DNA of 62,761 nt, the filler included, from Vermamoeba vermiformis (lineage: Eukaryota): NCBI GenBank assembly GCA_045837725.1. It is 4 parts of 4 records of this genome, joined end to end, with 100 filler letters (N's around TTAATTAATTAA, not from the genome) between each part and the next. Parts side by side here need not be neighbours in the genome. Positions count along the whole stretch, not along the records: positions 1 to 30,386 come from JBEWZL010000133.1; 3 more parts are not named here. One strand, written 5' to 3'. This document shows, piece after piece, positions 1-30,486 of this stretch. The notes beneath the pieces were generated by a model that worked only from the letters and a program-made list of their open reading frames with translations, ran no database searches and was not told where the DNA came from. The stretch's first letter is position 1, and each line of letters opens with the position of its first letter. Both the position numbers and the translations under genes were made by a program.

Positions 1-88
1 GTGTAGAAATGGTGTAGCAGAGAATGTAAATATTTGTTTTATTACTAAAGTGTGCAAATGTTTTGATAATCTTTGTAACCTTAAGAAT

Positions 89-3000
89 TTAACCATGGAC
101 TGACACGTCATAATCTATACCAAGTGCAGCTAAGGTAATTGCAGCATATTCAGTTCTGGCTATAACTCGTTTAGGCTCGTATTTGAAGCAAATAAAAATG
201 TTCTGAACAACACGTTCGGCGACACGTGCCAGCGTCCACTGCAAGAAGAAATTCTTGAACGGATCAGCCAGCTGAGCAGCACCAAGACCTTTTCTCCAAG
301 AAGCACCACCAACGACAACTTCGCGCAGTTGCTTGATGGATAGTACTAGCTTCACTGACTGCGCTAGCGTTGAGTAGTTGAGCTCTATGGGTCTAAAATC
401 AGCTCCTTTGACAGCGAACTCCCATGTCACAGGGCCAAAGTTGGTAATGTGAGAGATGGCCATGAGAGGGTCTTCTTGCCCGTCTTGATTTTCGAGTAGC
501 AAAATGACTTCACTTGTTGCAGGCAAGTAATCATTCAAAACAAGCAATCTGGCAGCCTTTCCATAGGGAAATAGCAGTACATGTCGAATGGAGTTAGTCA
601 TTTTAAGACTATACAGGCACTGTTGAGTTGTCGAGCTGACTTCCTCCATGAACCCACAATCAATGAGTGTCGATTGTGCCATTTGGATGTACTCATTGTT
701 GTCCGGGACCAGCAGAAGCAAGTTAACAATGAGTGCTTCAGTTGAAGCAACTTGCATGCCATTTGGAAGAACTTGTGGTGGAGTCTGGACTTGAAACAGG
801 GTTTCAGGCAAGGCTTGGCCCCAAAATTGCATGCCACTGATGTTACTATTGGGTGAGTTGATGTTGCTTCCAAACTGGTATATAGAGTCATAATAATCAG
901 TGTTGAATGGTTGTATTCTGTAGTTAGTTGCTGTTTGAGATTCATCGTCGAGCTGCAAGTCATTGTGGGATATCAGCATTGGTTGTGCACCCATGTTTGT
1001 AGGAGGGAGTGTGGCTCGTTTGTTTCTATATGGCCAATTCAAATAGATAGTTTCTACACTCCCATCAGGAAACCTAAAGCAAAGGGTTTCTTGCTTGTTT
1101 GTGCGAAAGTGCACTTGATTCAAGTAGTAAGTTATGCCATTTGAAGCAGCAAAAGTAATACTCTCCCTTATTTCAGTAAACAACTTTGTGCCTTTAGTTA
1201 GAAGCTCCACTGGTTCAGTAGTAACAAACCAATAAATTGCCCGTGCAGTAAGAGAATTGCCTTGAGGTAGCAGGGGTTGTGATATTTCAACAACCCTTTG
1301 ATTTCTCTGATCTGATGATGCCAGTCGTACTACATCTTTGGCTCGTGCAAAATGTATACGACTCCTTAAAATTAAATTAGAAATGTGATTGCTTTGTGCC
1401 AACACTGACGTTTGGACAGATGGAGTTTGGGTATTCTTTTCTTCTACTGAATCCTCCCTTCATAATCGATTACATGTTGGGATTTTTGAGAACCACACTC
1501 AATAATGTACTTACTTTTGATTCTCTTCTTTAACTGAATCCCTCTTTGGAAAGTCTTTTACTGGACCCTAAACTTTTGGTTAATTCTGCTTTTAAATTTC
1601 TTAAAAGAGATGGCATTTAACTCACAGGCAAGTCAACCTTTTTTTGAGATTCCAAAGTGTCTTCCAAGTCACTTGATTTGTAAACTGAAAATCTACTATT
1701 AAAGTATTAGAATAATATTTGTTACCAACAACTTACTGATGAAGTGGTGGTGTCTCAGCAATTCCTTCACTGATCATTTGTTCTTTCAAAAAAAGCAACT
1801 CGTCCACAAACTCTTGATTATCTTCTCGTTTCATGGATGCTTCAACATCATCTATGAAACACTCATAGATCTCTGTCAGCCCTTCTGCAGAGAGGGTGTT
1901 GAATATCTCTTCCTCATGTTGAAGAATGTACCATGGAAGATATGAAGGACAGTGAATGTATAAGAGAACACTACCGTGGACTATTACTAGCTGATCTTTG
2001 AAATGATGAGCTATCTTCTCAATGATGAGAGTTTTTGAAGCATATTCAGTAAAAGCCTTGATGGGAGATGGTTCAAACTTGAAGCAAATAAACATATTCT
2101 GTTGAATATTTCTAACTATTCTGTCATGAAGAATCCATTCTGACATAAAATCAGTGAATGTCTCAACTAAGTTGTCATAACACTCTTGTTTCTTGCAGCT
2201 AGCACCTCCAACTATTCCATAAAGTTCATGGATAGAAAATATCTTCTTTACAGAGCCACTTAGCGTTGAGTAATCAAGTTCTAAGTCCCCAAAAGTAGCT
2301 GTTTTCAGAACAAACTTCCAAATGGTGTCTTTGATTTCATCATTGAAAGCTGTTTTGACATTAATTACTTGTGTTATTGCCACAATGTCATTTTGCTGTT
2401 CCATTTCATTCTCCAGAAGCAAAATGACTTCACTTGCACGGGGTAAATAATCAGACAATTTGCGAAATCTGCTTATGTCACCATAGGGAAACAGCAAAAT
2501 ATGGCGTTCTTTGTCTATCAGATCCAATTCACTATAAAGTTGCTGCTGAGTGTTCGAGCTGACTTCTTTCTTGAATCCCAATTTGAGTAAGGCACAATCA
2601 ACCATATCAACATATTCTTCAAAGTCAGGAACTAAAAGAAGTATATTGATGATGAGGGGCTTGCTTGACGGACGTTGTAGACCATCACCATAGGCAATTG
2701 GGGGTGCAATATGAGCTGTACATATTTCAACACTTGTCTGTTGAGGGGGTGTGTTGTGCTGTGCATCAGTAGGTTGATTCGTGTTGTTGCCTGTCCCATA
2801 GGCTATCATTGAAGGTTTGTCTTTTGTTTGTTTGTCAAATTCAATGTGCATCACAATATTGCTATTGGAAAAAACAAACTCAAGTGCCGCTGGTTGTGAA
2901 GACTTCATTTCTATTTGAGCAAGGTAATGAAGGACTCCATAGCCATCCATATATTCAAAACACTCCTTCCAGACGAATGAGTCGGGATTACTGAATCGAG

Positions 3001-3417
3001 GAGTAATTTGTTCTAGTGCGATGAACCAATAGACTGTGCGAGTTGCAAGTCGATTGTCAGGAGGTAGAGGGCGAGCCTTTTCAAGGATTTTTTCGCTCCG
3101 CTCCTGTCCTGGACGTAGTCTTGAGCCAAGATCTTTTACTCGCACACAGCGGAGGTGACACCTACATAAACGTTATTACGCCAAGCGTCTGGTTTGTTGA
3201 TTATAAATTAAGCACATACTGGGTACTCGCTTCTTGTGGTTGTTCTTGAACGCCATCATTCAGATCTGCAACATTTCAAAATTAATATTGTTGTATTTAA
3301 ATAAGTGTCTAATAGTCATAAATTTTTTAAAATAATTGTAAATCAGATTAATAAAGATTCTGACTGACAGATTCGGATTTGGATTTAAATTAGAATTTAA
3401 AGAGAGTGCTTACCCAT
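89..3417 (-). CDS. Family B gene B1: two tandem [N-domain + degenerate Ras-like fold + alpha/beta domain] modules, second module truncated, no protease-like domain
   Basis: ATG-G|gtaagc at 3417-3414 splices into ORF 1733-3145. Three small in-frame exons (1695-1626, 1567-1515, from 1457) with GT-AG introns link it to ORF 89-1405. Both ORFs share YWF, NxLLLVPD, YLPxxSEVILLL, GGAS and CFK[FY]EP motifs with 12049-12948 and 14619-16622. Confidence 0.65.
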
Positions 3418-3841
3418 TAATATTTATGCCACCAAATTTTAGTACACGTATCTCACTCGGGTGTGCTGTTTGCTGCTTTTCAAAAACCGTGCAAATAAAA
3501 TTCAAGATCGGTCACGAAACTAAAACGTCATTAATATTAGATCTGGCCAGTTATCTGAGAAACTAACGTAAGTTTCAATGGTTGTGTTATTGTATGCCAG
3601 TGTAAAGTAATATCAGGAGGTGTTGTGTTTGATAAATCGAATCAATTCAATTCTTTTGCCAGGGCTTTTTTTGTGTTGGCCGGAAAAAAATGCGAAGAAT
3701 TTAAATCAAATAATCGCCCAGCCTAGCCCATCAGCTACAATCTTATAACGTTAGTGATCATCATTATCTACCAGGTACTTACGAGACCCAAAAATTTTAG
3801 GCAGTTTATTAGGAATAAATAGCACAATAGTATGTCACTTC

Positions 3842-5329: not shown

Positions 5330-5631
5330 GTGGCCAATATCAATTAATTAATCTACTGGTAGGTTTTCAAGCATTGTTGCTGTTTTTATGCAATGTCAAC
5401 TTAAATGAAATCAATCAAACAATGGATTCCAGTTTTCCGCAATCGCAATGGTTCAATAAAGAGCAAAGACCTAAAGATACTTAACAATATGAGTTGCAAG
5501 TCGCTCGTGCATTTGCGCAAAATAGAAAAATTGGACGACAAAAGGAATTGTCTCGTCTTTGTCCCATCCGGTTTATACCACCTGTCAATCGGTTGTTGGA
5601 GTTCATTTTTGCAACGACACGTAATTAAAGA

Positions 5632-8267: not shown

Positions 8268-8416
8268 TTTATGTTAATAGTTTTTGCTGTAAATAATAAC
8301 GATTCACTACACACCCTTTTCAATGTGCTTGCATAAGAAATACAACTCGCGAGATCTCGGGGTGTCACCCATTTGACGTCTATCGCGACACGAAAACAGA
8401 ATCATTGTCTTCCTCC

Positions 8417-11073
8417 ATGCAGAAAGTACACGTAAGAAATTTATTTAGGGTGTACGTACCCTTAGTTTGCCCTGTTGGCCATCAAGTGGACCGACTAACA
8501 CCAAATCCGGGCAATAATCGTTTCGGTTTTTCACTCAAAGACACAGCAACAGGCCAAGTGCATGTATATCAACTGCAATTATATTGTTTAGCCGACAGAG
8601 AATATGCCGAACGCACTTATGAGGATTGGGCAACGTGGGGAAAAAGGCATCCGCTCAGTTTTCAAAAGAACCCTCAAACCGAGGAAATTGAAGGTGTAAT
8701 AATTAGAATTAAAGTCAGCCATGGAGTATTCGATTTTAGAAAAATGAAAGAGCAGCTCGTAAGAATATCAGCAATTTACTGCGTGGATGGAGCGAACAAG
8801 AATCAAGGAGTATCTGCGCTATTCAAAGTATTGCCAAAGCGAAGACATGGAAATGATTTAGATAGCGATGGCGGCGATGAGGGTAATTATTATTTTGTTT
8901 TAGCCGCCATCTCTGATGGGACCCAATTCCCATTTTAGTTTCAAACTTCGTTGTTAGGCTCAAAAGTATTTACACGTTATTATAGTTAGGCTATCAATCG
9001 ACTGGGATCCTCTTACGAGTGAACCTAAGCCCGATCAAAGCGAGGCACGTGCGGATATGGATACAACAGCGAATATTGCAAACGCATCGCACGATTATTA
9101 CACGAGCCCTTCGATAGAATCATACGCAAGCTCTACGAGTTACATAGCGTAAGCATCAATAATTTCGCTCCGCTAAGGCGTTATTAAAACTCCTGTGTTA
9201 CTTAGGCCTGGTTCCAATACAAATGTAGTAATATCGAATAGCCCTCAGCAAGAACTATTATCTGGGCATTAGTAAGTTAATTACCAGTACCAACGCTTTC
9301 AATTTAAGGCTTGCTAACCCGCCGCATCTAGTTCCGACTACGAATTGCTAATGTTTCCTAACCCAAATCTACCAACCTTGCAACAACATTATTCTCCTTA
9401 CGAAGATATACCACAGCAGGTGCAGAACGAGAATTACATGGTACTTTACAACGGCAACGCCGAGGTGATCGGAAACTTCAGAGCATTGAACTTCTACAAG
9501 TCATCAGACATCAATATCAAAGAGGACATCAGGCTACTTGTTGAAGGTACTTAGGAAGCGTTAGCTATAGCACTTTACGCTTCCTACCGTCAGCATAATC
9601 GTGCATGTAACACATAACTGACACGTGTCATTTCTCGACTTCAGATCACGATTGCCGTGACACTTTGCTAAAGATCGACGGTGTTGACTACAAGTTCAAG
9701 CAAGAAGTGCATCCAGACACGAACAGACGATTTGTTGGCTACATTGCACAACAAGTGGAGAGTGTGGTTCCCGAGGCTGTTCAGCTCATTGATGGTGAGT
9801 TCCATCGAGCCTACTGTGGTAAATTAGTATATTGAACTGATGATGATATTTTCTAGGTGTGCTTCATGTCGATTATGAAGCTTTACTACCATATCTGAGT
9901 GAATCGGTTCGTGCCAATTACAACGACATTCGAAACATTAAGACAGACAAAACGAAGTTCCATCAAACTTTTGATTCGATATACGAAGAGTTCATCCAAA
10001 AAGAAAAGACGAAGAAAGCCAAGAAGGAGCCTGTGAAGACAAAAGAGAACGAATCTGGCGAATCCGGTCCAGGATTCAGCACGATCTGGAAAGTTATCAT
10101 CTTGATAGCCGGTCTCGCCATAGTAGGTGTTGGTGCGATGATTGCAGTCATGGCCATTCCTGGACATATTACTCATGTTCCTACGGACCCATTGACGCCT
10201 GCCCACTTGAGTCCTGCTGAACCTCAAGATCCGCTGATCGAGCGCGTCTTCAAAGACCTTTATCTCTCTACAAGTGGCCAGAATTGGAGACATAATATTG
10301 GCTGGCTCAACAAATCTACACCTATTTGCACGTGGTACGGCGTGAGCTGCACAGGCAAATCTGTTACGAAGCTAGCATTGCAAGAAAATGGTCTCAGCGG
10401 CACAATTTCATCGAGCTTGTTCGAATTAACAACGCTAATTGAAGTGGATTTATCTGGCAATCATATCAGCGGAACTCTGTCATCGGACATTCCTGCATTG
10501 ACACAATTGCAAGTGCTTCAACTTCAACAAAATGACTTGACCGGCACGATTCCTGAAGAACTCGCGCACATGGCTTCACTTAGTACCCTCCGACTGGACA
10601 ACAATAGATTCAGTGGAACCATTCCTGCGAGCATTGTCAGCGCACCACAGTTGCACGAAGTTAAGCTTGCAAACAATACACTTACAGGCACTATTCCCTT
10701 CGTGAACTTCACGCATCTCGACGTTAGCAATAACCTCCTTGAGGGCTCGTTACCTCAGTTTAGTGCCGTAACGACTAACCTCAACATTGAGAACAATAAG
10801 CTCGTGGGCGATGTCGCGAACCTGAGCAACTTGACTGGCATTGTTTCGCTGCTCATGGGCTCGAACAACTTGACTGGCACATTAAGCTTCAGCGAAACAC
10901 AGCTGCGCACGATTAAAGTGCTTCGTATGGCCCACACGTCGATCAGCAGCATTGAACAGACCCAATATGTACCGGGCAGACCGTCTTTCAAGTCTTGTGA
11001 CATGTCGCACGTGCCTTTGAAATGTCCTTTGCCAAATTGGGCTATTTCTAGCTGTAATGCCAATTGTAAGTAG
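8417..11073 (+). CDS. Family A gene A2 (same architecture, N-domain class shared with A1)
   Basis: MQKVHVRNLFRVYVPL…KVLPKRR; SSDINIKEDI with Ser at 9504-9506; GYIAQQVE exon; TM VIILIAGLAIVGVGAMIAVMAI; CTWYGVSC cap, LRRs, Cys-rich C-cap. Confidence 0.85.
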
Positions 11074-11336
11074 AAGAGTGTAAAATAGCGTGTATAAAAT
11101 TGTATGATTAGGCCTTGGGTTGGATCAGAACTGAATTAAACCTTGTTTGGAGTAATTGGAAGTTATTCGCTATACAGCGCTGTATGGAGGTTACTGCGTA
11201 CTTAGATCTGTTGGTCGAACCCTGATGAATTGGCTCCTCGGAAATGACAGGGAGGCAATTCATTTTAGCTTCGAAAATCGACATTTCTTCTCTGTAGAGC
11301 GTTGGTCGCCAACAACACTAATGCAAATAAGGCAGC

Positions 11337-14042
11337 ATGGAGTCTAAGTAAGTTCGTTTTCAAAGCGGAAAATTAACCAGATGCATTAAAATTAATTATC
11401 AATTTTGAATCAGCTACAATTTAAGTATTAGCGTCAAATTATCGAGTAATAATTATACAGAAATTTGGTTCTAACAAAAAATCTGGTTTTAATTGCCAGA
11501 TGTGCAAAATCTTCTGTATTCGCCTTGCAATTTCGTTATTAATTATTGAACAAGGTCATTGCGCTATGTTAGGGTCGAGAAAGTACAGAGTCCTGGAAAT
11601 AAAGAGGAGCGGAACAGACGGATCCTTCAATTCGCTCAACCCGTTCCCCAAAACAAACAATTGCCGTCGCTCGCGTGCTATTGGTTCGTAACAACAGAAG
11701 TGTTGGAAGATATTCGATACAACGACAAATTATTTGCTTGGAAAGGGCAAACTGAAGTCGAAGATTCCAATGGCATCGTGCACTACCTCTATCGAGTCGA
11801 TTTTAAAGCCAAAGAGCGCGGAGCAATTGGTTTTGAATTTACAGACGGTACAATAGTGCGATTAGAATGCTTGCCACCACTTGATCTATTATTAGAGAAT
11901 ATTGGTGTTGCAAAATCACGCGAGGTAAATTGGATCTTTTGTTGAAACTTTTAACGAACTAACGTTTGTCTGTCAGGAGCCATTCGATCTGAAAGATCTC
12001 CTCAGCAAGCTACCTCCAAAGACCATAATTGTCATCAACACACTGCTGTTGGTCCCTGACGAACCTGACTTTATTCAAATGGCTGACACGGCACTGACGA
12101 CCGTTGGTTTCAAGAAAGAAGTTAGCTCGCACAATCGTCAGTACCTCTACAGCCATACAGACTTGGTCAACACCAAGCGACACGTGCTCTTGATTCCTTT
12201 TGGCAACGAGAATAGATATCTCCGAATCGACGATTACCTGCCGCAAGCCAGTGAAGTCCTGTTGCTAATTGACAACAAAGGTGAACAGCAACCGAGCGAG
12301 TTGATGGCCATCAAGCAAGTGAATAACGTCGCCACTATTGTCAACAATATCTTGGTCAACAACACGTGGGAGTTCGTGACCAAGACAGCCAACTTTGGTC
12401 AGTTGGTGCTGAACTACGAGCCGCTGGAGCCGTCAGTCAAGACACTCTTTTCGATCTCAAAACTGCGTGGTATTCTCGGTGGCGCGAGCTGTCAGAACGC
12501 CACCATCCAAGAGCTACAAGGGCCGTTCAACAGGTTCCTCATTGAATGGACTCTGAACTCCGAGCGGGTTGTCAGACATACCCCAGAAGCGATCTATCTC
12601 TGCTTCAAGTTCGAACCAGACGTTGTTCAAGCATTGTCCGAGTACGCTGCCATCATCCTTGCTGCACTCGACATCGAATATGAATATACGCCCGTTGTGG
12701 TCCATGGCAGTGTCCTCGTGTACATCCGTTGCCCATCGTATCTTCCGTGGTACATTCTGCAGCGCAAACAAGACATCTTCGATACGCTCAGCAAATACGA
12801 ACTGACAGAGATCTACGAGTGTTTTATCAGCGATGTTGAAGTGTCAATGAAGCGACCCGGCAATGAAAAGTTCGTCGAAGAGTTGAGATTTTTGAAGGAA
12901 CTCATGCTTGAAGATGACGTGCTAGACCAGCCAACAGCAACAAGGTAAGGCGATACGACAAGCTATTAAATGTTTTAACTCGTTATGTACGCAGATTCAA
13001 GGTTGTACATCTACCAACCATGCCTCCCACCGTCGACAAACTTTCAAAGGAGCGGCAACAATCGCTTGAGGCAAAGTATAATGCTATGAAAGTCTTCGAT
13101 AACAAGTGGACCAAGACACTCGAAGAGTGCTACAACAGCGATCAACTGCGTCAACAATTGTTCAATTTCAAGACTGACAAGGTAAGTCATGACACCTATT
13201 CGTTATTCTCCTCATTTTAACCATCAATTTAGAACGCAAAAATCGCAATTCGTGTGTTCATCGCATCAGCCTCAGCAGGACTGGCAACGAACGTCGCCAA
13301 GTTGATGCGTCCTTTCAGAGGCAAATCAATCATCGATGGTGTGCACTCTGGTCTTCAGATCGCCAATACAGTAAGTGAATAACCGGCATTTCTTCCATAG
13401 TACTCATTTGTATGCTAGATCGTCGAGTGGAATCAAAGTGGTATCGTGCACATCGGCGAACTGAAACCCACGAGTGCCACGGCTGTTCTGTTCGACATTC
13501 AAGGCTCAGTCAAGTTTGATTTTACGGAAGAAATTGCTCAGAAGGTAAACAATATTCTAGCTAGCTAAGGTCATGATAGTTTGCTAACTACTCCTACTTG
13601 ATCAGATGATCAACTTCATTCAACTATGGAACATCAAGTACCGCTATTCATCTGACGAGTTAAACTCTCATCGCTTTGTGCGAGACTTCTTGCAATACAC
13701 GATGAACGTGTCACTTCTCGATTGCTTCAAAGGACCATTGGGTACGTCTATATGTGATGACTTGACATGAGCTAATACACGTCTCTAGGCTCATACATGG
13801 ACTACGTGATGAGAACAGGCGACGCGACTCCACGACTGTTTTCACCCAAGAACGGAGTGATGGTGTTCAAGACACACGAAGAGCTCGAAAAAGTAGATCG
13901 AAACCAACTGAGTGACGATGAGAACAAACTGTTGAAGATCTTCCATCGTGGCTTTCAGTTGCAAGAAGCAGCGAATGGCAAAGATGTGAGTAGCTGCTGT
14001 TACGGACTTCCCACGAATGGTTTGGAGATCTTGAACCAATGA
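11337..14042 (+). CDS. Family B gene B2: N-domain + degenerate Ras-like fold + alpha/beta domain + papain-like domain with Cys->Ser
   Basis: ATG 11337 with a gtaagt donor splices to 11555 (MESKSLRYVRVEK). Includes ORFs 11559-11945 and 12049-12948. The 3' exons encode GVHSGLQI (His 13344-13346), WN, NSHRFVRDFL (TCT 13666-13668) and FHRGFQL…LEILNQ*. Confidence 0.75.
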
Positions 14043-14452
14043 AATCATTAAACAAAATTTCCTTGTGGATCTTCTGATCGGATCTGCCGCTTCGCCCAAA
14101 CTCTCGCCTTTCTATATTGGATATTGCATCTTTTGGTATTGATAGATCGATTCTCGTCGACAAAAGATATAAATTTCTGGCCTAACATTTCAATGCGAGC
14201 GAGTCACGTGCTTGGAAAGAATTGATTTTGGGTGATGCGCATTCAATTCTTTTGGTCTAAAACATAAAAGAGAGGCTTCGAAACACCAAGCCAACAGAAA
14301 GTATACAACAGATCCAATCAATTGGATTTTACGGTAAAAAATCACGAATCCGCAGATTGACATTTAAATTTAATTCATTAAACTAATTTATAATTATAAT
14401 TCATTAAATTTTAGCTCTACAATAGCTAATTATTGCTTCAAGTTCAGGAGAA

Positions 14453-17400
14453 ATGTCAGATCGAAATATTTACCCGGCAGATTTACCCCAGCGCAATTAC
14501 GCGTGAGTAGAATTCCATTTTTCTTTAATAAAATATTGACAACAAAATTAGGGCGAAGCGTCCTCGGGAGGATTCAGTCGAAGAAAAGCAGATTCGGGTC
14601 CCATCCGTCCAAACGTAAGTGTTGGCACAAAGAAAGCACTTTTATAACTTAATTTTAAGGAATCGGATACGTTGTACACGAGTCAAAGACATTGGAACTC
14701 GACTGTCACCAGATCTAAAACTCCAAAGGGCCGTTGAAATATCGCAGCTTCCTCAAGGCAATTCTCTTACTGCACGAGCAATTTATTGGTTCGTTACTAC
14801 TGAACCGGTGTTGCTGATAATAGAAGACACAAACTTGTTTGTTTGGAAGGAGAGTCATACTTTGACCGCTTCCAATGGCACAACATACTACTTGAATCAA
14901 ATTGACTTTCACAAAAATAAGCGAGGAACCCTTCGCTTTAGGTTTCCTGATGAGACCGAAGACACTATCTACTGCTTGTCAACTCACCCAAACAAAAACA
15001 AACGAGCCAAACTCTCTCCCGCAAACAACAACGACATGCAGCTCGACGATGAGTCTCAAACAGCAACAAACTACAGTGCACAACCAACGCCGTTCAATGT
15101 TGAATATAATGATTTGATAAACCAGCTTGGAAGCAACACCATCTCGCCCAATAGTAGCATCAGTCCTTCGGGTAGTGGGGAGATGGACTTTATATACGAA
15201 GTTGGTGTGCCGCAAGTACCAACTTCGCTACAGGGCCAAGCCTCGCCCCAAACTCCGTCACAAGTACAAACTCCGTTTCAAGTCCAGACCCCGCCGCAAG
15301 TCCTTCCAAATGGCATGCAAGTTGCTTCAACTGAAGCACTCATTGTTAACTTCCTTCTGCTGGTCCCGGACAACAACGAGTGCATCCAAATGGCGCACTC
15401 AACGCTCGTTAATTGTGGGTTCACCGAAGAAGTCAGCTCGACAACTCAACAGCGCCTGTATAGTCTGAAAAAGACTAACAACACCATACGACACGTGCTG
15501 CTATTTCCATATGAAAAAGCTGACAGATTGTACGTCTTGGATGATTACTTGCCTGCAACAAGCGAAGTCATTTTGCTACTCGAAAATCAAGACAAGCAAG
15601 AAGACCCTCTCATGGCCATCTCTCACATTGCCAACATTGGCACCAATTGCGCATGGGAGTTTGTTGTCAAAGGGGCTGATTTTAGACCCATAGAGCTCAA
15701 CTACTCAACACTAGTGCAATCAGTGAAGTTAGTAGTATCAATCGAGCAACTTCGCGAAGTTATTGTTGGTGGTGCTTCATGGAGAAAAGGTCTTGGTGCC
15801 GCTCAGCTGGCTGATCCGTTCAAGAATTTCTTCTTGCAGTGGACGTTGGCACGTGTCGCCAAACGCGTTGTTCGGAACATTTTTCTTTGTTTCAAGTTCG
15901 AGCCTAAAGGAGTCATAGCCAGAACAATTGACTATGCCGCTAAATCCTTGGCTGCACTTGGAATAGAGTATGACTTGGAAGATGCGTCAGTAGTCAACGG
16001 CAGTGTGCTCGTCTATGTTCGATGCCCAGCGTATGTTCTTTGGTACGTTCTGCAACGCAAAAAGGACATCCTTCAAACCCTGAAAGAAGACGGATTGACC
16101 GAGATCTACGAGTGTTTCATTAGCGATGTTGAAACGTCAATGAAGCGAGCTGGAAACGAGCAGTTCATTGAAGAATTGGAGCACTTGAAAGAACAAATGA
16201 TTTGCGATGACATTGCTGAACAACCGACGCCTAACAAGTATGTACCACTGCGTTTTCGAAGAAAACTAACTGACGTTTGCCAAAGATTTAGACTGGTAAC
16301 TCTACCAAACTTGCCGTTGATAACCAGGTCGAGTTCGCACGTGGCAGCGGCAGCTGCTAAAACTTTAGCGCCGCCAGGGGACGTTGAACCAATGATCATC
16401 GATGATCTGCCAATAGAATATCCGCCGACTTTAGATAAATTGCCGGCAAACAAACGAAAAGTACTGGAAGAGAAAAGCGCCGAACTGAAGAATTTTGATA
16501 ATAAGTGGAATAAGACGCTTGAAGAGTGCTACAACAGCGATCAACTGCGTCAACAATTGTTCAACTTCAAGACTGACAAGGTAAGTCATGATGACAACTA
16601 TTCGTTATTCTCCTCATTTTAACCATCGATTTAGAATGCCAAAATCGCAGTTCGTGTGTTCATCGCATCAGCATCAGCAGGATTGGCAACGAACGTCGCC
16701 AAGCTGATGCGTCCTTTCAGAGGCAAATCAATCATCGATGGTGTGCACTCTGGTCTTCAGATCGCCAATACAGTAAGTGACACATGTCAACGTTTAGTTC
16801 TCGTTCAGTCTTGTTAATCACTCGTTTGTTTAGATCATCGAATGGAATCAAAGTGGTATCGTGCACATTGGCGAGCTCAAACATGGCAATGCAGTGGCTG
16901 TTTTGTTCGATATTCAAGACTCCGTCAAGTTTGACTTCTCTGAAGAGACGGCACAAAAAGTAAGTCACCCTTTCATTTTAAGTTGTTATACACCATTGTT
17001 AACACTACTTGCGCTCTTTTTAGATGATCAGCTTCATTCAAAAATGGAACGTAGAGTACCGCTATTCGTCTGACGAGTTCAACTCTCATCGCTTTGTGCG
17101 AGACTTCTTGCAATACACGATGGACGTGTCACTTCTCGATCGCTTCAAAGGACCATTGGGTACGTCTAAAGCTTATTTAGAATGACTGGCCATGTGCTAA
17201 TACACTTCTCTAGGCTCTTACATGGACTATGTGATGAGAACAGGTGACGCGACTCCACGACTGTTTTCACCCAAGAACGGAGTGATGGTGTTCAAGACAC
17301 ATGAAGAGCTCGAAGAAGCGGATCGTGCCCTTCGAAACCAACTGAGTGACGACGAGAACAAACTGTTGAAGATCTTCCATCGTGGCTTTCAGTTGCAAGA

Positions 17401-17500
17401 AGCAGCGAATGGCAAAGATGTGAGTAGCTGTTGTTATGGACTTCCCACGAATGGTTTGGAGATCTTGAATGACAGCGGCAAACCAACAAAGTATAATTAA
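14453..17500 (+). CDS. Family B gene B3: same architecture as B2, with a longer S/P/Q/T-rich linker
   Basis: ATG 14453; introns after 14502 and at 14615-14659 lead in frame into ORF 14619-16622. Basic motifs AKRPR and KNKRAKLSP. The 3' exons are nearly identical to B2 (GVHSGLQI; NSHRF with TCT at 17084-17086). Confidence 0.78.
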
Positions 17501-17563
17501 AATCTAATTTACTTCTATTACAAAAAATTAAATGGTTAAAGACATCGAAAGGATGTCACAGTG

Positions 17564-20500
17564 CTACTTCGTTTTGTGTCTTTTTTTGGTGTTCTTTTCT
17601 TTGGCGTCATGTTTTCTCTTCTTGGTCTTGATCTCAGAGCTGTTACCAATCTCATCAGAGTCAAATTCAATTAACTCTTCTTCTTTTGAGTCAAGGATTG
17701 GAATTGAAGCTTTCTCTTTTTTTCTTTCCTTCTTAGTAGTAGAAGTTTGGGCAATTTGATCTGAAATGACTTTTAGTGCTTCCTGTCTTGATTTGTAATC
17801 ACCCTTCATGGCAATGATGAATTTGGTGACATGTTCTTCTGTCAATACATCTTCATAGCCTCGTTCATCAAGGGTGTCATTCACCTGCTTGGTTATATCT
17901 TTTATCTTCATTTCAGCATTATTCTTTTCAGGGATTGCTAGTTGAATAAAGTGTCTAATGATTAAGTCCTCAAGATCTGGTTCATTGAATAAGTCAAAGG
18001 CATGTTGTAATGCATGTGAGCGATTGAAGGGATTATTGACATAGTTCATTGCTAGTGCAGCAGTTCCAAAAATTGACTAAATTGTAAATCAGAATCAAAT
18101 AGAAAGATCATTGGAAAACTTTTTACCTTGCTAAAGTGAATTGTTAGCATTTGGCGAACCCCAGATTTACCTCGCTCTTTGCCTTGGTTTGCTAGTGGAA
18201 AAGCTCGACGCAACCCTGTAATAACATTCTAATATTGTTAGTACTAACTTATAAAATGAAAAAACCTACTTGTATTGATTGTTGAGGCAAGCTAACTTTA
18301 CTGGTATTAGGAATGTCCCCATAGTTCTTAATTTGATTGACCACAAACTTTTTTTCTTCAAAACTCCAAACCTTTGGATGCTTTGCAACAAAGTGATTCC
18401 ACTCCATCTTATCTCTAGATAATTTAATGGCAGTGGCATTGATGAAACTCATCTCAAAGTATGAATGTAATATCTGTCGCTGTAACTTGCTGTTGCCAAA
18501 AGTTATTAATAAGTTAATAAATTGATATTGTCATACCATGATGACAAGCTAGGCTGAACAGCACATTGTAATATTGAGATGTGAGCTGCTTGAAAGTAGC
18601 TCTTCAACTTTAAGAAGTCATATTGATAATCAATTTCTCCGTTGTGCTTTTTAGAATTTGCTTTGAAGTAGTCTTGCATTTTGAGTACCAAACTGAAACC
18701 TTGTTCACCTTTATCAAGTCCAGCAATTCTTCTTAAGAGAGTATCAATTCGTTCAAGGATCTTCTCTTTAATTATTGCAGCACAGCTGTTGATAAATTGA
18801 GGAAGTATTTCTTTCAGATATGCATTTCTGTAGTTGATTCTAGAAATCTTTCTGTTCATGTATTGATCTTTTTGTTCAATTAGTTTTTTGATATCTGCAT
18901 CAAAAGTGACTTGTAAATTGGTCTTCTCTACAGCTACAACACTTGATAATCGTTCAAACTGCTTAATATTTGACTTCATCTCCACAATGAACTTATTCTT
19001 TTCAAATTGAATATATTGCTGCTTAATTTTGTTTTGAACATCATTGCCCTCGTCATTGTTCTTGTCACTGTTATTGTCATTGTTATTATTGTCATTGTGA
19101 TTACAGTGATCATTGTCATTGTCATCAATGTAATTGTTATTGTCAGTGTACTTGTAAATGTAATTGTCATCATTATTATCACTGTCCTTGTCATTGTTGC
19201 TGTAATCATCATTGTCATTGTTGTTATTATTATCATTGTGGTTATGGTGATCATTGTCATCAACGTAATTGTTGTTGTCATTGTAATGGTAAATATCATT
19301 GTAAATGTCAATGTAAGTGTAATTGTCATCATCATTATCACTGTCCATGTAATTATTGTTGTCATTGTCGTTATGGCTTTCAAAAAATTTTGCTGAAATG
19401 CCATTGATAATATCAAGCAAGTGAATTTCATCAATTGCAACAAAATCGTCAACATTTGGATGATCTTTTTCTTTGAGAATCAGCTTTCCAATGTTGTTCA
19501 GCATTGAATCAACTTCCTTCCACATTGGTCGTAGCACAATATCAGAAAGGGAATAGCATGAAAATCCTCCCTTTCCAAGGCAGATCCGGTTTATAAATTC
19601 TCTACATCGTTGCTCTGGGGCCTTGTGCTCAAACACTTTTGTTTGCTCAATTATCTGTCACAGTCAATATTTTGTAAAACTAATCACTTCAACTTACATA
19701 TTGTTCAAGCTTTGCCATTGAACATTGACTCTTGGCAGCCTCAATGTCAGCTGCAATGCGGGCTGTAACTTTGGCACTGGTATAGTGGTACCATTGTCTC
19801 AATTGAAATTGAAATTCTGGATAATGTTTGTACATCTTTGACTGAAGTTGAGCAGCAACTGCTTGAAAGTAAGTGCAATCAAGCTTTTGGCTGACATCTG
19901 ACATCTACCATGAATGGTTAATATATATATGCCAACACTAAATAATTAATTGCTTACAAATTGAATGCAGCTATCAATCTTTGAATAGAAGGATTTTGCT
20001 CTTTCAAGTTCATTCTTGGTTTGGTCTTGGAAAAGCATTTGAGCAAGTGAGTTCATGAAAAAATCAACTCCTTTTTCATTTCCACTCAGCTGGATGCCAT
20101 ACTTCTTTGTATTGAATAGAAGATGAGTCAAAGCAAATGGACTTGTGTAGATCTCGGGTCCTTGTGGTTGATAGTTTGCCTGAAATAGGAGCTGTCCAGC
20201 TCCATGAAGGCTTGAAAGCTATCAAAATGACATTAGAACTTTAATTAGAAATAATTGCTTACTGGTTCAGTTAAAGTCATTGACTCGTTGAAGTACCATT
20301 TAGATAATTTTTGGGATAGCTTAATTGCATGATCTTTGATATTTGCTGGAAATTGTTTTACACATGTCTGAATAATAAACTGCCAAAAGATTTCTTTGAG
20401 TCTGTTTTGCATCTTTGTTGCATGTTCTTTCATAATGCTCAGCATTTCTCCTTTGTTTTTTGCCTTTACATCTATGTTGTTGAAAACAATCGTGCACTGT

Positions 20501-22371
20501 GACGCCATGCTCTCCAAGCTGTTAGCCTCAAATTGTTCTTTGATCTTTTGTTGATATCTCTTCATGAATTTAGAGCTCTCCAGCAGTGCAAAATCATTAT
20601 TAATATCTCCATGGTCACTCACATAGATCACATGAGTTGCTACATCCAGAGCAGCCCTAATATTAATGTCAGGCAAGGTTGATCAAAATATTTCTACTTA
20701 CGATGTTTGTTGTTTGAGTATGTAGTCTTGTCGTACAAGCCCTGGGCAATCAATCAGCTGACCACCATTTTTCAGAATTGGTAATGGTAGTCTAAACTCA
20801 ACAGATTTGATTAGGCCCCAAAAGTGCCTGTCACCACCACAATAGGACATGTACTTGGCCTTTACGTATTGAAGGCTTTCATCAACTGAGTGGTAAGGTG
20901 ACGTGAAGGTTATCTTTGTTCCAAGCTTTCCACGGAAGTGTGGGTCAATGTGAAGCTCCTCTTCTGTCACTTCAACTAATTTCCGCTCAATTCCAATCAT
21001 GTTTAGGCCTTTGAAGGTAATATTCACTTCTTCGTCCTCATACGCAGCTTGGATGAAATTGTAGTCCTAGAATTGTTAGAGAAATGGTAATAGTACACTT
21101 CAGTAGAACTTACTTTGACTCTACAAAGCTCTATTTCAACTTGTCGGGCAGAAAGAAACTCAATTGTAATTGAAAACATAACTCCATATGAGATGGTTGA
21201 ATTTAACCGTGTTGTTGATGATACACTACCTATGCATCATTTCAGTTAGCAATTAATTAACGCTCGTCTTACAAACCTTCTTGAAGAAGATAGTACGAGC
21301 TCAATTTTTCATTGTTCATCGGCACTTCAACAAAGGAAGTTGTATTGTGATAGATGTTTTCTAGCGAATCCTCTGCATCTATTGTATCGACGACTATTTC
21401 TCGATACTTGAAGTGAAAGGAGTGCCAATACCAAGAAACCTCGTGCCAATAGGCAGCGTCGATTTCACTTTTCTTACGAAGCGAGTGTTTGATAATCTTG
21501 TTGATCAAAAAACTCTTGCCAATACCTACAAAATGAATTTGGTACCTGCACGCAAAGGAATGAACGTATGAATAACTGACCTTGACGTCCGAAAAACACA
21601 ATCTTCGCTCCTTGATCTCGTGGCTGTGATTCGGTCATAGTCAAACTCTAAACGCTTGTAGTTAATAGTTTATTCGCATATTTACTCTCTATTGAGTTTT
21701 TAAAGATTAACTTGCGTATTTTGTCGTCCCAATAAATTTATAAAATATTTGCAAAACGTACTTTGATATGTGGCCCAAGAGCAACGCGTAATTCCTTTGC
21801 ACCTTTTGACGAAGAGTTCTCTACGTGGCGCAGTGTTTCGGCTACGTGCTCGGTGACTAATTCGGAAAATTGAATTGTTGAAACCGGATGCGTGACTGAA
21901 AAGTTAAAGTGAGAAAATAAACCCTCATATATATAGATCAATTAATTACTTACTATGACGCTCAAAGACTAGCGGGCATATTTGCTTCGACTTTCTGAGA
22001 CCAAAAATTGCAATTTTTGTCGCATCCGAAGTGTCATTGATACGTTGCACTGAATCAGGTTCAATTACGTAAACTGTTGCATTTTGCGTTTCATTCCACT
22101 TGTGTAATGCTTTGTATAGGTCTTTATCTTCGTTATCAAGACGTTGCCGTAATTGTCCAACAAGTTGTGCGAAGTCCTTTCGTTGCCAGACATCCACGCC
22201 TTGAAATTTGTATTGCCAGTATAACATACTGGCAATTAGTGACTCGCCGACGAACTTCTCGGGGAGTTGGATTTCAGTTAAGTGCAGAAGATCCAATAAT
22301 AATTTGAAGCTCTCCTCCTCCTCCTCCTCCTTCGATTTCGGCGTCTTTTCTATTGCTATGTTGTCTTCCAT
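17564..22371 (-). CDS. Large dynamin-superfamily GTPase, NUGGC/SLIP-GC-like, with a D/N-rich insert; 5' end uncertain
   Basis: Splicing gives the P-loop IVFFGRQG|IGKSFLINK. FWGLIKSVEFRLPLPILKNGGQLIDCPGL carries G3 (DxxG) and IVFNNID is G4-like. Long helical C-terminal exons, all on the minus strand with gt-ag boundaries. Confidence 0.7.
19040..19378 (-). repeat. Coding trinucleotide low-complexity tract (AAT/GAT/AAC/GAC) encoding an Asn/Asp-rich insert
   Basis: Repeated TTGTCA/TTATCA on the + strand; reads NDNDNNN…YIDDND in ORF 18506-19636. Confidence 0.9.
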
Positions 22372-23385
22372 TCAAAATATCGATTGAATTGAAGTGGTAA
22401 GAAAGCGATTCAAAACCTGACTGGCTTTCGCAATTTTCCTGGCCAGAAATCTTTCGGACAATCCTACTTGACATGAGATCAGTAAATAAATGATACACGC
22501 GCTAGCATTATATTAATTATCGTTTAAATGAAGTACTCAGACTAAAATTCGTACCACAAATCGGGTTTCTCCGCCAAGAAACGTGCTTGTCCGTCAAAAT
22601 CCAATACCACATCCAAAAACAAAGCTACGATGTAAACAAATGCAGCCGCTGTAGCCTCGTTTTATATTGGTTGCATGCCACTCTAATTCTTCTAGTAACA
22701 TACGCGTTCTTTAGATCAAAATTTCACGCCATCGAATGAAGACATCTTGACGTGCGCTACAAAAGAAAGGTTATTCGTGCTTCGAGCCAATAGTAGTTAA
22801 CTACGTACATAGGTAACACAAGCTTAAAGTGCGAGTGATCTGCGCGAATTTACCATAGTTCGAAATGACAGCTCTGTGGACCACCAATTATGGTATGCAG
22901 CAGCTTAGTAAGTATCAAACTGGAATAAAATATTTAATATAACTTGACGAAAGATACAAAGTAAATACTAAATAAAAACCGAAACATCTGGCAAATTTCG
23001 TTTTGCATTATTTAATTGTCCAGTTGGTACGATGTCGGTCCGACAAAAATTAAAATTTACATTGGCTATTGTTCCAATTATTCTAATATATTAAGTATTA
23101 TTTTTTAAAAATGCTTACCACGGGATTTGGAACCCAAAACAACACTGCTTAATTTCTCTTTCTGCATTATCAATCATATGAATATATTTAATTGGTTGTC
23201 TGTTACGAACGGCTTCCTTACTAAACTGTTTTTTGGTCAGATGAAACGCAATTTGTTCTGACCACGCGGCAATGTCCACAAGATTTCGATACTAAGTCGT
23301 GAGTTTCACAAGCTAATCAATATAAATTACAATATTGCTCCGCAGGGTTTCAGGTACGCCGAATTAGCATTTCAAGCAGATGTAA

Positions 23386-23682
23386 ATGGATCTCGCATTG
23401 GAAGAAAATGGTCTCAGCGGCACAATTTCTTCGAGCTTGTTCGACATAACGACGCTAATTGAAGTGGATTTATCTGGCAATCATATCAGCGGAACTCTAT
23501 CATCGGACATTACTGCATTGACACAATTGCAAGTGCTTCAACTTCAACGAAATGACTCGACTAGCACGATTCCTGAAGAACTCGTACACACGGCTTCACC
23601 TAGTACCCTCCGGCCGGATGACCTTTCTGCAAGTGGCGATAGTCTGTTGAGCAGTGTCAGCGCGGCCTAGTGGCACGAAGTG
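23386..23682 (+). pseudogene. Orphan LRR fragment closely related to the A2 ectodomain
   Basis: Near-identical to about 10372-10661 (ENGLSGTISSSLF…IEVDLSGNHISGTLSSDI…LTQLQVLQLQ). Later repeats are decayed, with a stop at 23668-23670 and no upstream exons. Confidence 0.85.
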
Positions 23683-23900
23683 CTACTTACACGAGCTCGC
23701 GACTTGCTCAGTGGAAGAAGAGGTGCGTTATTGAAGTGCTAAAGCTTGGCGTACTCATAAATCATAGCGAACAGATGAAGGATTTCGCATTAACGCGCGC
23801 CTTTGAGCTTCGGCACGTGCCCGCCGCCGAAAAGTAGACGAAGAGTGCACAGAAACTTAAATTTGAATACTTTGAACGCAGTAACTCAACTAGTCATTTT

Positions 23901-25042
23901 ATGGGCCTCAAAGTATCCCGAACCATCTCTCCGTCGGAAGACCCTTCGCAAAATCGCAAATCCACATCTTCCTCAAATCACCCTTCAGCAACAAGTGACG
24001 GAGCAGCGAGCGTTCACAAAAAAATTAAAGGCCTAGGGGATGACTGGGCGAGTATTAGCGCCGACGACTATTATTCACCAGAGATCTTAGCCAACAAAAT
24101 GTTTCCGTTCCCGAAAAATGCTAGCGGCGTAAGTACGATGAATACTAAAATTATAGAGATAAACTATATATTTTGCTATTTTTAAAGCTAATTATTGCAT
24201 TATAGACAATCAGACTGCCTGTCAAGCTCTTCATCTCTTCAATTACTCCGTCTCTTGTAAATATGGCGAAAGTCCTCAATTTCTTTAAGAAAGGTTCACT
24301 AATATTTGGAGCATCGCACGTAGGATTGCAATTTGGTTCCGTTGTAAGTTAAAATTTAATTCTTTTGCTCGATCTGATTACTTTCTGATTTTAAGGTCAT
24401 TGATTGGAACGAAAGCAGCCTTGTACATATTGGAGAGTTAAAATCTAAGACAGCTACAATATTATTTGATGTTCACGATTCAGTCCAAGTCGTTTACACT
24501 CCTGAACTGGAACAAAAGGTCAGCCAAATCCGCTAAAAGTGATTACAAAGATTGACATTAGCTTTTAGGCTGTGGAATTTGTACAAAAATGGAACTCTAC
24601 GGTCAAATACTCGCAGACAGAGTGGAACTGTCACAAGTTCGTCAAAGATTTTTTGGATCAAGTCCTCAGCTTGTCGCTTTCGACTTGTTTCCAGGGTATT
24701 CTTGGTAAGTACTATATTTAATGTTCTAATTTTAGCTCATTATTCTCTTCAGGCGAATATATTGAATCGTGTATCATCACCAAAGGCGATCCAAAGCCAC
24801 GTCTCAAGTCGAAAAACCATGGAGTATTAACATTCGACACGCATCAAGACTTGGAGCGAATAGAGCGCGAAAGAGAAGAGGACAAAGACAAGCCTGAAGA
24901 TCAGCAACGTTGGAAATTTACTCCTGAAGAGCTCAAATTGATGAAAGTGTTTCATCGAGGCTTTCAAATGCGCGAAGCAGTTTCTGGTCATTATGTCAAT
25001 TGTTATTACGGCAATCCGACTGGCGCATTGGAGATCCTGTAA
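23901..25042 (+). CDS. Stand-alone permuted papain-like (PPPDE/NlpC-P60-type) enzyme, His-Cys intact, possible N-myristoylation
   Basis: Five exons: MGLKVS…; FGASHVGLQFGSV (His 24317-24319); VIDWNESS; KYSQTEWNCHKFVKDFL (Cys TGT 24629-24631); FHRGFQM…LEIL*. Intron positions match the C-terminal domain of B2 and B3. Confidence 0.75.
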
Positions 25043-25231
25043 CGGAACAGTCTCCGACTATTTATTTGTACAATACTCTCAAGAATAATGCTTTGTTGTT
25101 ACCTTCAACGACAATATATTATTTTAAAATTGTTGAAATGAACTGGCCGAACTATTTGCCCGGATGTCACATTTGTCTCGTCACATCTTAAGTGCGCACA
25201 CAAAACCGCCATTCAATCAATTTCGGTAAAG

Positions 25232-27632
25232 ATGGCACACAGTGCACGTATTCGTAACCTATTCGATCTTTTCGTTCCTCTCAACGGTCCTGCTAATCTG
25301 GAAGCGGTTCCTTTACTTGGAACGAATTTTGGATTTGCGTTGGGTCTCAAAAACAACGATGAAAATTGCCTTCAATACCACATTCAACTAGCTTTTAAAC
25401 ATCCGAGAACAGGTGAAGACGTTGCGTTGACCAACTGCTTCGAGTGGGCGAAGAGAAACGCAATTCGATTTCAACGCTCGGAGGAAACACAAGAAGTCGA
25501 GGGAATAATAGTTAAGATTAAATTACCGCCCAAAGTATTCGATTTCAGAAAGCATAGAACACAACAAACGCGAATTCAAGTGAATGAAATCAAAAATGGT
25601 CAGATCATCAAACAAGCATTCAGCAACATCGTCCAAATATTACCTAAAAGTCGGACCTCGCATACAGACTCTACGGGTAAGCGATTTAACATTTTTAAGA
25701 ATTTTTTAAGATAAAGATACGTTTAATTAGCTCGTCTGCGGAATCTGCGCTAACGATTCACTTTAGTACTTATACCAGTTTTATGGATGCAAGACGTTAT
25801 TCCATTGAGCCCTGTTTCACCGCTGAACCTTTCTTCGTATGTGGCGGAAAGTCCGGCGGACGAGATCGAGAACCTAGGAGACATCGACCCACTGCTGCCC
25901 ACGTAAGTTTCTTCTGACCGTGAATTCCTTACCTAACGTTTATGTGTAGCCCGTATAATTACGATGCAGAGCTACAGTACCTGTCGAACAACAATACCGG
26001 CGAGCAATACATGGTACTTTACAACGGCAACGCAGAAGTCGTTGGTAACTTCAGAGCATTGAACTTCTACAAGTCATCAGACATCAATATCAAAGAGGAC
26101 ATCAGGCTGCTCGTTGAAGGTACGTACGGTGCAGGACAAGCACTCTGCACGAGCTGCTACTTCGTGTACCAATTGACTAACACGTGTCATATCTCTCCTT
26201 CAGACCGCGATTGCCGTGACACGTTGCTTCAAATCGACGGAGTAAACTACAAGTTCAAGCAAGGAGTGCATCCAGACACGAACAGACGATTTGTTGGCTA
26301 CATTGCACAACAAGTGGAGAGTGTTGTTCCTGAAGCTGTTCAGCTCATTGATGGTAAGTTCTATTGTCTCGTTTATACTCATATCGACTATGAAACTAAT
26401 ACAGAGCATACTTAGGTATTCTTCATGTCGACTATGAGTCTCTGATTCCATATCTGAGCGAGTCAGTTCGTGCCAACTATGGTGACATCAACGATCTTCG
26501 CTCAAAGACAGAACGAATTCAACGAACTATTGACGAGATGTACGAGCAATTTATCCGTAAGACAGAGTCTCCTCAGCAAACTTCGACGTCATCAAAGCCT
26601 CAACGTGCATCACGAGTGAAAAAACTTGTTCTGCTTAGCGTCATTTCGGTTACAGTATTGGTCGCTATACTTGCCACGTTGGCCTTCATTGGTGTGATCC
26701 CTATCCAAAACTTTGGTGGCTCGCAAGACGACACACCACCAAGCCCAGACTCGAAGTTTCCACCAGAGTTCAGCGTCGCTTGGAAAGATTTATATAGTTC
26801 AACGAATGGTGACACGTGGCTGAGAAAAGACAATTGGCTCAACGAACAAATATCAATTTGCGAGTGGTACGGCGTGAAGTGCATCGAACAACAGCGTTAC
26901 TTGAACGGAACTGCGGTGACATATAATTTCATTCACATCTCATTGGACAACAACAACTTGACTGGCACATTGCCCTCGTCATTGAACAATATCACGTGGC
27001 TTCAAAGTCTCGCTCTGCGGAACAACTCGTTGACTGGAACCATCCCTGAAGAATTCGCGAAGATTGAAAACTTGGAAGTTCTAAGATTGTCGAGCAACAG
27101 ATTGACGGGAACGTTGCCTAATATGGCTAAATTTTCCAAGTTGATAGTGCTGGATCTGAACAGAAATCAGTTCTACGGCACATTCCCGAAAGATTTCTTC
27201 GACAACGATCACATCAATGAAGTCTACTTGGCAAACAATCAGATCGAAGGCCCCATACCAGGGCATAGCCGACTAAAAGTGCTGGATCTGAGTTCAAACC
27301 GCATCAACGGATCTCTTCCCTTCTTAAGCGTTGCATTGGCATACCTCGATTTATCCAACAATAGGATTGAAGGCGAGGTCTTAGCGTCAACTGCAAACGC
27401 GATCCATCTCAACTTGGCGAACAACAGATTCAGCGGTCATTTTACAATGTCAGCCGAACAATTCATCAAAATGAGGTACCTTAATATTTCAAATAATATG
27501 CTTCGTACTTGGCAAGACGAGTACCCTCGCGTGCCTGAGAACGGGTTCCGATGCGACGCAAGTAATAATCAGTTTGCTTGTCCGTTGGGATCGGTTTATA
27601 TCGAACATATTTGTCGTGCTACTTGTAAATAG
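25232..27632 (+). CDS. Family A gene A3 (second N-domain class, S74 chaperone, TM, LRR ectodomain)
   Basis: MAHSARIRNLFDLFVPL…VFDFRK…SNIVQILPK; SSDINIKEDI with Ser at 26077-26079; TM LVLLSVISVTVLVAILATLAFIGVI; CEWYGVKC cap, LRRs, C-cap ending CRATCK*. Confidence 0.85.
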
Positions 27633-27869
27633 GATCATAATTAAATAGTGTAGATATTAGGCTCCTGCTGATTTAAAATTCAGCTAGATCAAGACTTACT
27701 TACCGACGAAATAGCTGAATAGATTAACGATCAGGTTCGCCAAAGTACTTTAAAATAATTCCGGCCTTTTTCAAGTAAAATGATGCAAAATCTGATAGGA
27801 CTGGCTATTTGCCCGGAAGGGAATCAACTGGCACTCGTCACTTTTTTACTATGTATTGATCATCAACAA

Positions 27870-30386: not shown

Positions 30387-30486
30387 NNNNNNNNNNNNNN
30401 NNNNNNNNNNNNNNNNNNNNNNNNNNNNNNTTAATTAATTAANNNNNNNNNNNNNNNNNNNNNNNNNNNNNNNNNNNNNNNNNNNN
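30387..30486. other. Artificial contig linker
   Basis: 44 N + TTAATTAATTAA (stops in all six frames) + 44 N. Confidence 0.97.

Follow-up and report, generated by a model that had tools for sequence, protein, structure and literature searches.

On contig C133 (JBEWZL010000133.1) of the amoeba Vermamoeba vermiformis, a gene for a free putative thiol hydrolase, here called C, lies downstream of two genes, B2 and B3, in which a homologous domain has serine in place of the catalytic cysteine and is fused behind a module of three folded domains. Judging from reading frames and intron positions, this module is constant and joins different partners elsewhere in the genome, mostly at one phase-2 intron, in a layout like that of the TRADD-N proteins of bacteria and animals. 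A pseudoenzyme beside an active paralogue is ordinary; the unusual part is the scaffold. With belief and doubt about evenly balanced, we propose that the serine domain binds the ligand class of C but cleaves it inefficiently, and that it reports on this ligand or localises the protein through a TRADD-N-like hinge. The window analysed is a stretch of 62,761 nucleotides joined from four parts of assembly GCA_045837725.1, contig C133 making up positions 1-30386; the assembly searched comprises 43.3 Mb in 309 contigs.

Gene C and the serine-bearing domains of B2 and B3

Introns in the window, which is eukaryotic DNA, are about 50 bases long. By blastn, contigs C172 and C11 represent a second haplotype, about 93% identical to the window, and contig C87 is a 100% duplicate of positions 1-17459. 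The genes in question are as follows.

11562..14042 (+): gene B2, encoding a beta domain, a PNP-fold domain (about 12037-12576), a TRADD-N-like domain (about 12577-12927), a linker and a Ser-type peptidase-fold domain
13344-13346 and 13666-13668 (+): His codon and Ser codon (TCT) of B2, read from the sequence; kept in the second haplotype
14453..17500 (+): gene B3, eight exons, about 888 amino acids, with the B2 architecture and a longer disordered linker
16746-16748 and 17084-17086 (+): His codon and Ser codon (TCT) of B3, read from the sequence; kept in the second haplotype
23901..25042 (+): gene C, a free putative enzyme of permuted-papain type (DeSI/PPPDE-related), five exons, 304 amino acids; assigned from homologue fold and splicing
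24317-24319 and 24629-24631 (+): His codon and Cys codon (TGT) of C, read from the sequence

The five exons of C (23901-24128, 24206-24343, 24396-24518, 24569-24704 and 24753-25042) contain no internal stop and encode the motifs HVGLQ and WNCHKF. Residues of catalytic type are found at His114, Asp125, Tyr177 and Cys184, and the same columns are conserved across the family. The corresponding places in B2 and B3 are taken by His, Glu, Tyr and Ser, within the motifs HSGLQ (from 13344 and 16746) and NSHRF; the nucleophile positions, Ser615 and Ser769, are TCT in both haplotypes, and the catalytic Cys is gone. Four introns match among C, B2 and B3 in position and in phase (0, 0, 0, 1), and over profile columns the domain of C is 37-38% identical to those of B2 and B3. 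The spliced B2 frame comes to 723 amino acids, counted without a fixed start, and its 5' end is provisional; the acceptor of B3 exon 4 lies at 16286 or 16292, either being in frame. The entire B architecture with its Ser motif recurs in P0157, a complete transcript product of 881 amino acids, which together with P0009 is the nearest named relative of the window proteins, both being from V. vermiformis. The original prediction, of a gene with HVGL, NCHKF and a TGT codon next to intact homologous domains with TCT and shared introns, is borne out by the open spliced frames and the matching introns. A sequencing error at the Ser codon was ruled out, Ser being present in both haplotypes, three paralogues, P0157 and P0007.

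The further claim that these domains have a permuted papain-like fold agrees with a model built on P0001, a database homologue 83% identical to C, with 98 relatives (pLDDT 86). The model matches DeSI-1 (2wp7) with Z 8.0 and rmsd 3.6 over 106 aligned residues, with further matches to CLN5 (Z 6.7), TseH (6.4), YiiX (5.6) and PLAAT4 (4.1), and PPPDE1 ranks first in Foldseek (E 4e-3). In these matches the core shows a circular permutation in which the strand with His precedes the helix with Cys. By this model the fold of the C family is that of the permuted papain-like NlpC/P60 (PPNE) superfamily, to which LRAT/PLAAT proteins also belong, and the fold match and motif spacing would juxtapose His and nucleophile in C. 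In the portion of PMC3142127 available, permuted papain-like members are defined by a four-residue catalytic set (Cys, His, a third residue of polar type, and Tyr), and lipid-like substrates are argued for many of them.

C shares with DeSI-1/PPPDE (Peptidase_C97, PF05903; 2wp7, 3ebq) the permuted papain fold with His before Cys, and its Tyr lies seven residues before the nucleophile, as do Tyr101 and Cys108 in PPPDE1. The C family nevertheless differs from these proteins, to which it is 15-18% identical, in its extra N-terminal helices, its C-terminal subdomain and its acidic or His third residue. PF05903 matched neither P0001 nor C; among 133 homologues scanned, 15 matched at E<=0.001 and one exceeded the curated cut-off, and because such matches are few, the proteins are better described as a related protist family than as DeSI proper. 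Searches with P0001 against Pfam and PDB sequences gave no useful match, and an Atlas search gave a weak PPPDE lead (0.89). The predicted protein C begins with Met-Gly, as do 40 of the 120 Met-starting homologue matches, and this start suggests possible myristoylation. Taken as a whole, C is probably a free thiol hydrolase of the PPNE superfamily and probably targeted to membranes. To call it a protease is to go a step further, because the fold also spans lipid acyl-hydrolases and transferases; a ubiquitin-like conjugate and an acyl or lipid bond are both candidate substrates.

The change from Cys to Ser was followed across the family. A phmmer search of 1.84 billion representatives returned 142 matches, and among 148 sequences 134 could be aligned at both sites (14 fragments were dropped). 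These rows are His/Cys in 124 cases, His/Ser in nine and His/Ala in one. Five Ser rows (B2, B3, P0157, P0007 and P0151) form a single clade (support 1.0) whose sister group is C plus P0001 (0.996), and the other five non-Cys rows, four Ser and one Ala, are single lineages scattered over the tree. On this tree the Cys-to-Ser change of the B type arose once; since it is one event, no statistic of fused versus free proteins is possible.

The idea that fusion implies Ser was ruled out. Among 128 external rows, Cys is present in 18 of the 19 proteins of at least 440 amino acids (the exception being P0079), all ten homologues in which a further Pfam domain is clear (SAM, FYVE, PX, kinase or patatin) have it, and a copy on contig C30, whose frame continues from a kinase, keeps both His and Cys. 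The scoring of Cys against Ser in fused and free homologues, which the original prediction had put forward as a check on its inactivated-copy reading, therefore goes against that reading at the level of the family, fused homologues usually keeping Cys. P0079 is an independent long Ser homologue of 472 amino acids, with the SAM-fused P0029 among its tree neighbours. In this genome Cys is found, besides C, at three more loci (a second free gene on C289, and copies on C126 and C30), and a third Ser copy lies on C87, where the module ends before its Gly-Ser turn; the states of these four were read from frame translations, and the tree excludes them.

Both types of domain are expressed and constrained. 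Contigs of run X1, near-identical to the window and taken as RNA by guess, have six of six modelled B2 introns and three of four C introns spliced out, and RNA reads of runs X18 and X20, from a more distant strain, cover both the Ser domain and C. Between haplotypes, the ratio of nonsynonymous to synonymous substitution (dN/dS) is 0.079 and 0.042 in the Ser domains of B2 and B3, respectively, and 0.063 in C, with TCT kept. Comparison of B3 with P0157 gives 82% identity for the Ser domain and 47, 56 and 68% for the three module domains. By these comparisons no part of B is conserved as well as the Ser domain, which is under purifying selection. Pseudogene decay was ruled out by the open frames, the splicing and dN/dS below 0.1.

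The constant module and its exchanged partners

In a model of the large B3 exon, residues 1-106 form an all-beta domain, which a disordered linker separates from two domains of alpha/beta type, the second (226-401) and the third (405-515). The corresponding features in the window, with two further copies of the module, are listed below.

14661..14984 (+): B3 N-terminal all-beta domain, from the model (pLDDT about 90)
15333..15863 (+): B3 domain of PNP/MTAN fold (nucleoside phosphorylase/hydrolase), highly diverged, from the model
15864..16220 (+): B3 TRADD-N-like alpha/beta domain, from secondary structure, with a Gly-Ser turn at 15999-16004
16238..16285 in B3 and 12945-12994 in B2 (+): phase-2 intron after the module, at the constant/variable junction
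1736..3172 (-): B1, a paralogous module with a short tail after the shared intron, from genome matches
92..1459 (-): further paralogous module, ending inside the TRADD-N-like domain, from genome matches

The beta domain of B3 has no Pfam match and no PDB sequence match. The second domain matches the MTAN CT263 (Z 12.5-13.0), with Z 12.5, rmsd 3.2, 155 aligned residues and 8% identity for 4qaq, and Foldseek gives an E of 1e-4; pyroglutamyl peptidase and PAC2-like proteins match at Z 8-9. A degenerate small GTPase was considered for this middle domain and rejected, GTPases reaching a Z of about 8, below the 12.5 of MTAN. After strand 1, acidic residues fill aligned columns in 10 and 11 of 13 rows. 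PF01048 matched none of 30 module members; its six other matches genome-wide include none at module loci.

The third domain is likely TRADD-N-like: its topology and turn agree with that reading, and profile comparison supports it weakly. Its elements in the B3 model run strand-helix-strand-strand-kinked helix-strand, and of 27 rows, 25 have GS at the second turn and the other two have GC. In the sections of Kaur et al. (2021; PMC8195603) available, TRADD-N is a two-layer, RRM-like alpha+beta sandwich with kinked helices, whose beta2-beta3 turn has a tiny residue together with Ser or, in some cases, Cys; it occurs once per protein, flanked by globular domains, where constant and variable parts meet, and the third domain here is likewise a single copy at such a position. 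By eye, a coral row in one part of their alignment has GS and then a strand ending in Cys-Pro-Ser, like the third domain here. When a profile of this domain was compared with a PNPase+TRADD-N+HTH protein of Acaryochloris (576 amino acids), the best alignment fell on the TRADD-N of that protein, with GS in register. Fold searches with the B3 exon model were dominated by the PNP domain, the third domain having been modelled only within the exon.

Further searches were negative within their scope. In prokaryote genomes the third domain gave a single match of 17 residues, taken as chance, and PF20694 gave none above cut-off in 401 genomes of one bacterial phylum. Neither PADLOC nor Atlas returned anything for the module, PDB profile searches A2-A5 and a search of plasmids gave no useful match, and viral folds gave nothing useful (best E 1e-3). 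A word-based search, which is blind to distant relatives, found only 17 close proteins in the databases.

In this genome the module gives 22 matches, which reduce, with duplicates and haplotypes collapsed, to 13 loci with long matches and three fragments. Of 11 loci tested, eight carry a phase-2 donor at one shared codon position past the module. Of the other three, one has its donor a codon earlier, one reads through and one has no call. The partners that follow are listed below, fusions outside B2 and B3 being deduced from frame and intron geometry.

Three loci: Ser domain
C235: kinase
C181: coiled coil and kinase
C101: TPR and kinase
C237 (L058:6242-7090, -): Peptidase_C14 metacaspase, His and Cys motifs intact by eye
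C232: RhoGAP, Arg motif intact by eye
C56:489236 onward (L055): large AAA protein, Walker A intact by eye
C213: SH2-like stretch, by eye, with no Pfam match
C172: hydrophobic tail

The AAA partner spans two open frames (929 and 1343 amino acids) with weak AAA_22, AAA_5 and AAA_7 matches, and is presumably reminiscent of RNF213-type immune ATPases. All three kinases behind a full module lack canonical motifs, having HRR with DFS, HQN, and HCD with AGF, whereas HRD and DFG are retained in the C30 and C99 kinases. Beside kinase exons at C99:62220 and C132:4836, the beta domain was seen without the PNP and TRADD-N-like parts.

This arrangement parallels that of the TRADD-N proteins. In them, as in B, a PNP fold precedes an alpha/beta domain that bears a GS or GC turn and sits at the constant/variable junction, and they share with the B family a lineage-specific expansion and kinase and caspase-like partners (PMC8195603, in the sections available). 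The same sections describe PNPase+TRADD-N+caspase in Gemmata and PNPase+TRADD-N+STAND, also bacterial, and their bacterial table lists PNPase+TRADD-N+X in 13 rows; the module with metacaspase on C237 has the same domain order as the caspase form. Compared with these proteins, B adds the beta domain, has no Death-like domain, has a PNP part without PNP sequence similarity, and has several dead partners. TRADD-N is reported there in bacteria and metazoans, the visible part of the eukaryote count table being all animals, and the 12 of 13 supplements covered, one of them in truncated form, contain no Vermamoeba, Dictyostelium or Planoprotostelium. Immune ATP nucleosidases (Cap17-like PNP; bioRxiv 10.1101/2023.01.24.525353, as available) likewise combine a PNP fold with multidomain layouts and immune-like partners, although the B module, having no PF01048 or PADLOC match, is placed near them by fold only; the main text of that preprint does not mention amoebae, and its supplements may bear on this. 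Outside subscription titles, the literature covered holds no description of a swappable PNP and TRADD-N-like design in amoebae.

Competing explanations for the serine domain

If the Ser domain is a binding domain that cleaves inefficiently, a C-like gene would have been joined once to the end of the lineage-specific module (beta domain, linker, diverged PNP-fold domain and TRADD-N-like domain), and the Cys of the joined domain would have changed to Ser. The domain would have lost most turnover, would still bind the ligand class of C, and would make up the portion of the B protein that senses or targets. The TRADD-N-like domain may restrain the flanking domains and relay occupancy, as has been proposed for constant/variable TRADD-N proteins of bacteria and animals, and the module family would most likely serve cell-autonomous defence or stress signalling. 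A bolder proposal, which we hold only tentatively, is that Vermamoeba-like amoebae possess a family of intracellular immune receptors of their own, based on a PNP-fold and TRADD-N switch rather than on an NLR, with last exons swapped at one intron and dead copies of host enzymes (kinases and the permuted-papain hydrolase) as integrated sensors. The suggestion in the original prediction that the inactivated copy acts as a substrate trap or integrated decoy stands in part: the Ser copies are intact and under selection, and they form the variable part on a scaffold that also carries three motif-less kinases. The idea of a fast-evolving decoy does not stand, the rates disagreeing with it.

Several observations weigh against a defence receptor with a disabled sensor. 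The fold of the PNP-type domain occurs in non-immune proteins too, and the domain has no sequence match to PNP enzymes. Pfam scans did not detect TRADD-N in the third domain, and the Acaryochloris match is weak (E 0.024, probability 2%): shuffles scored as high in 3 of 1000 cases, and one of 142 real controls did so too. Nor does the low dN/dS point to an arms race. By eye, the metacaspase, RhoGAP and AAA partners look catalytically intact, so dead partners are not the rule. Finally, B keeps His, Glu and Tyr and the surrounding W, N and F, as expected of a working enzyme.

Such an enzyme is the first alternative to be weighed. The B domain would be an active serine hydrolase or acyltransferase, with Ser-His-Glu and Tyr as a remodelled catalytic set, acting probably on a more reactive ester, thioester or lipid bond and providing the output domain of the module; this is possible but rather doubtful. 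All five B-type rows keep the His, the Glu (His+11) and the Tyr (nucleophile-7), the constraint on the Ser domain equals that on C, and other module partners include intact-looking enzymes. In addition, superfamily members act on lipids (PMC3142127, in the portion available; CLN5 at Z 6.7), and the available part of PMC10318531 lists serine-based papain-like families and partly active Cys-to-Ser mutants, while calling such activity speculative. On the other hand, Cys is present in the great majority of rows (124 of 134), the other Ser and Ala cases are scattered, and B has Asp or Glu in place of the conserved Gly that lies three residues ahead of His. Replacement of Cys by Ser is also the usual means of inactivating thiol enzymes. 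FAM84B (LRATD2), a stand-alone vertebrate protein, offers a pseudoenzyme precedent for this fold. It keeps both His, has lost Cys and is judged inactive (PMC6535720, in the part available), whereas the pseudo-domain described here is the fused variable part of a larger protein, beside a Cys-bearing sister.

An unlikely alternative is a strict integrated decoy, in which a parasite effector or inhibitor targets C and the module-borne Ser copy imitates C and thereby detects the attack. It would account for a constant scaffold with swappable host-like domains, four partner types being apparently dead, for the descent of the Ser copy from the neighbouring C lineage, and for a locus that is tandem and haplotype-variable. 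Plant NLRs with integrated domains likewise combine a constant scaffold with variable host-like domains, some of them catalytically dead. B2 and B3, in contrast, have no NB-ARC or LRR sensor and no NLR-type NTPase, their integrated domain evolves slowly (dN/dS below 0.1), and there is no known matching pathogen effector and no candidate from a parasite. An identity of 37-38% to C, with each protein strongly conserved, fits separate fixed roles better than mimicry. Least likely of all is that the Ser domain is a regulatory heterodimer partner of C, by analogy with cFLIP and caspase-8: the genes are adjacent (directly so in C172) and both are expressed in runs X18 and X20, but tandem duplication accounts for the adjacency, the other module partners would be left unexplained, and a complex prediction for P0001 with the P0157 Ser domain (score 0.01, run without alignments) is evidence neither way.

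Neighbouring genes and significance

One feature separates B3 from C in the window.

17484..23828 (no strand assigned): segment of about 6.3 kb between B3 and C, missing from the second haplotype C172 by blastn and junction text

In haplotype C172, B3 and C are directly adjacent. On its minus strand the segment carries a gene of several exons, with the motifs GxGKS and DxPG and by eye a dynamin-like GTPase, for which Pfam gave no match; it also contains an Asn/Asp-rich repeat near 19040-19376 and, at 23392-23681, an LRR fragment, 85% identical, of the gene at 10372-10661. No X18 or X20 RNA reads fall on it.

Interleaved with the B and C genes are four tandem plus-strand genes (5629-11073 and 25142-30434) encoding Peptidase_S74, a hydrophobic segment and C-terminal LRRs, with more copies on C289 and C87; the Peptidase_S74 match at 25924-26412 has a Pfam E of 2.7e-11. 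We take these to be self-cleaving proteins of the MYRF/MrfA-like kind in which the LRR part is receptor-like. A dual-specificity phosphatase exon with an intact CX5R motif lies at 3845-4138 on the minus strand (Pfam DSPc, E 1e-14), and a Tc5/pogo-type DDE_1 transposase with a ZZ zinc finger lies off contig C133, at 49936-51678 on the plus strand.

Free-living amoebae host giant viruses and intracellular bacteria, and to our knowledge little is known of amoebal cell-autonomous defence. The pair of C and B is a natural side-by-side case for serine in a papain fold, which is poorly explored according to the available part of PMC10318531. If the proposed reading is true, a TRADD-N-like constant/variable family would extend the bacterial and animal system to Amoebozoa, with named genes. 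On the bolder proposal of a separate family of immune receptors, it would be the first TRADD-N system beyond bacteria and animals, and would represent an independent origin of the integrated-domain strategy.

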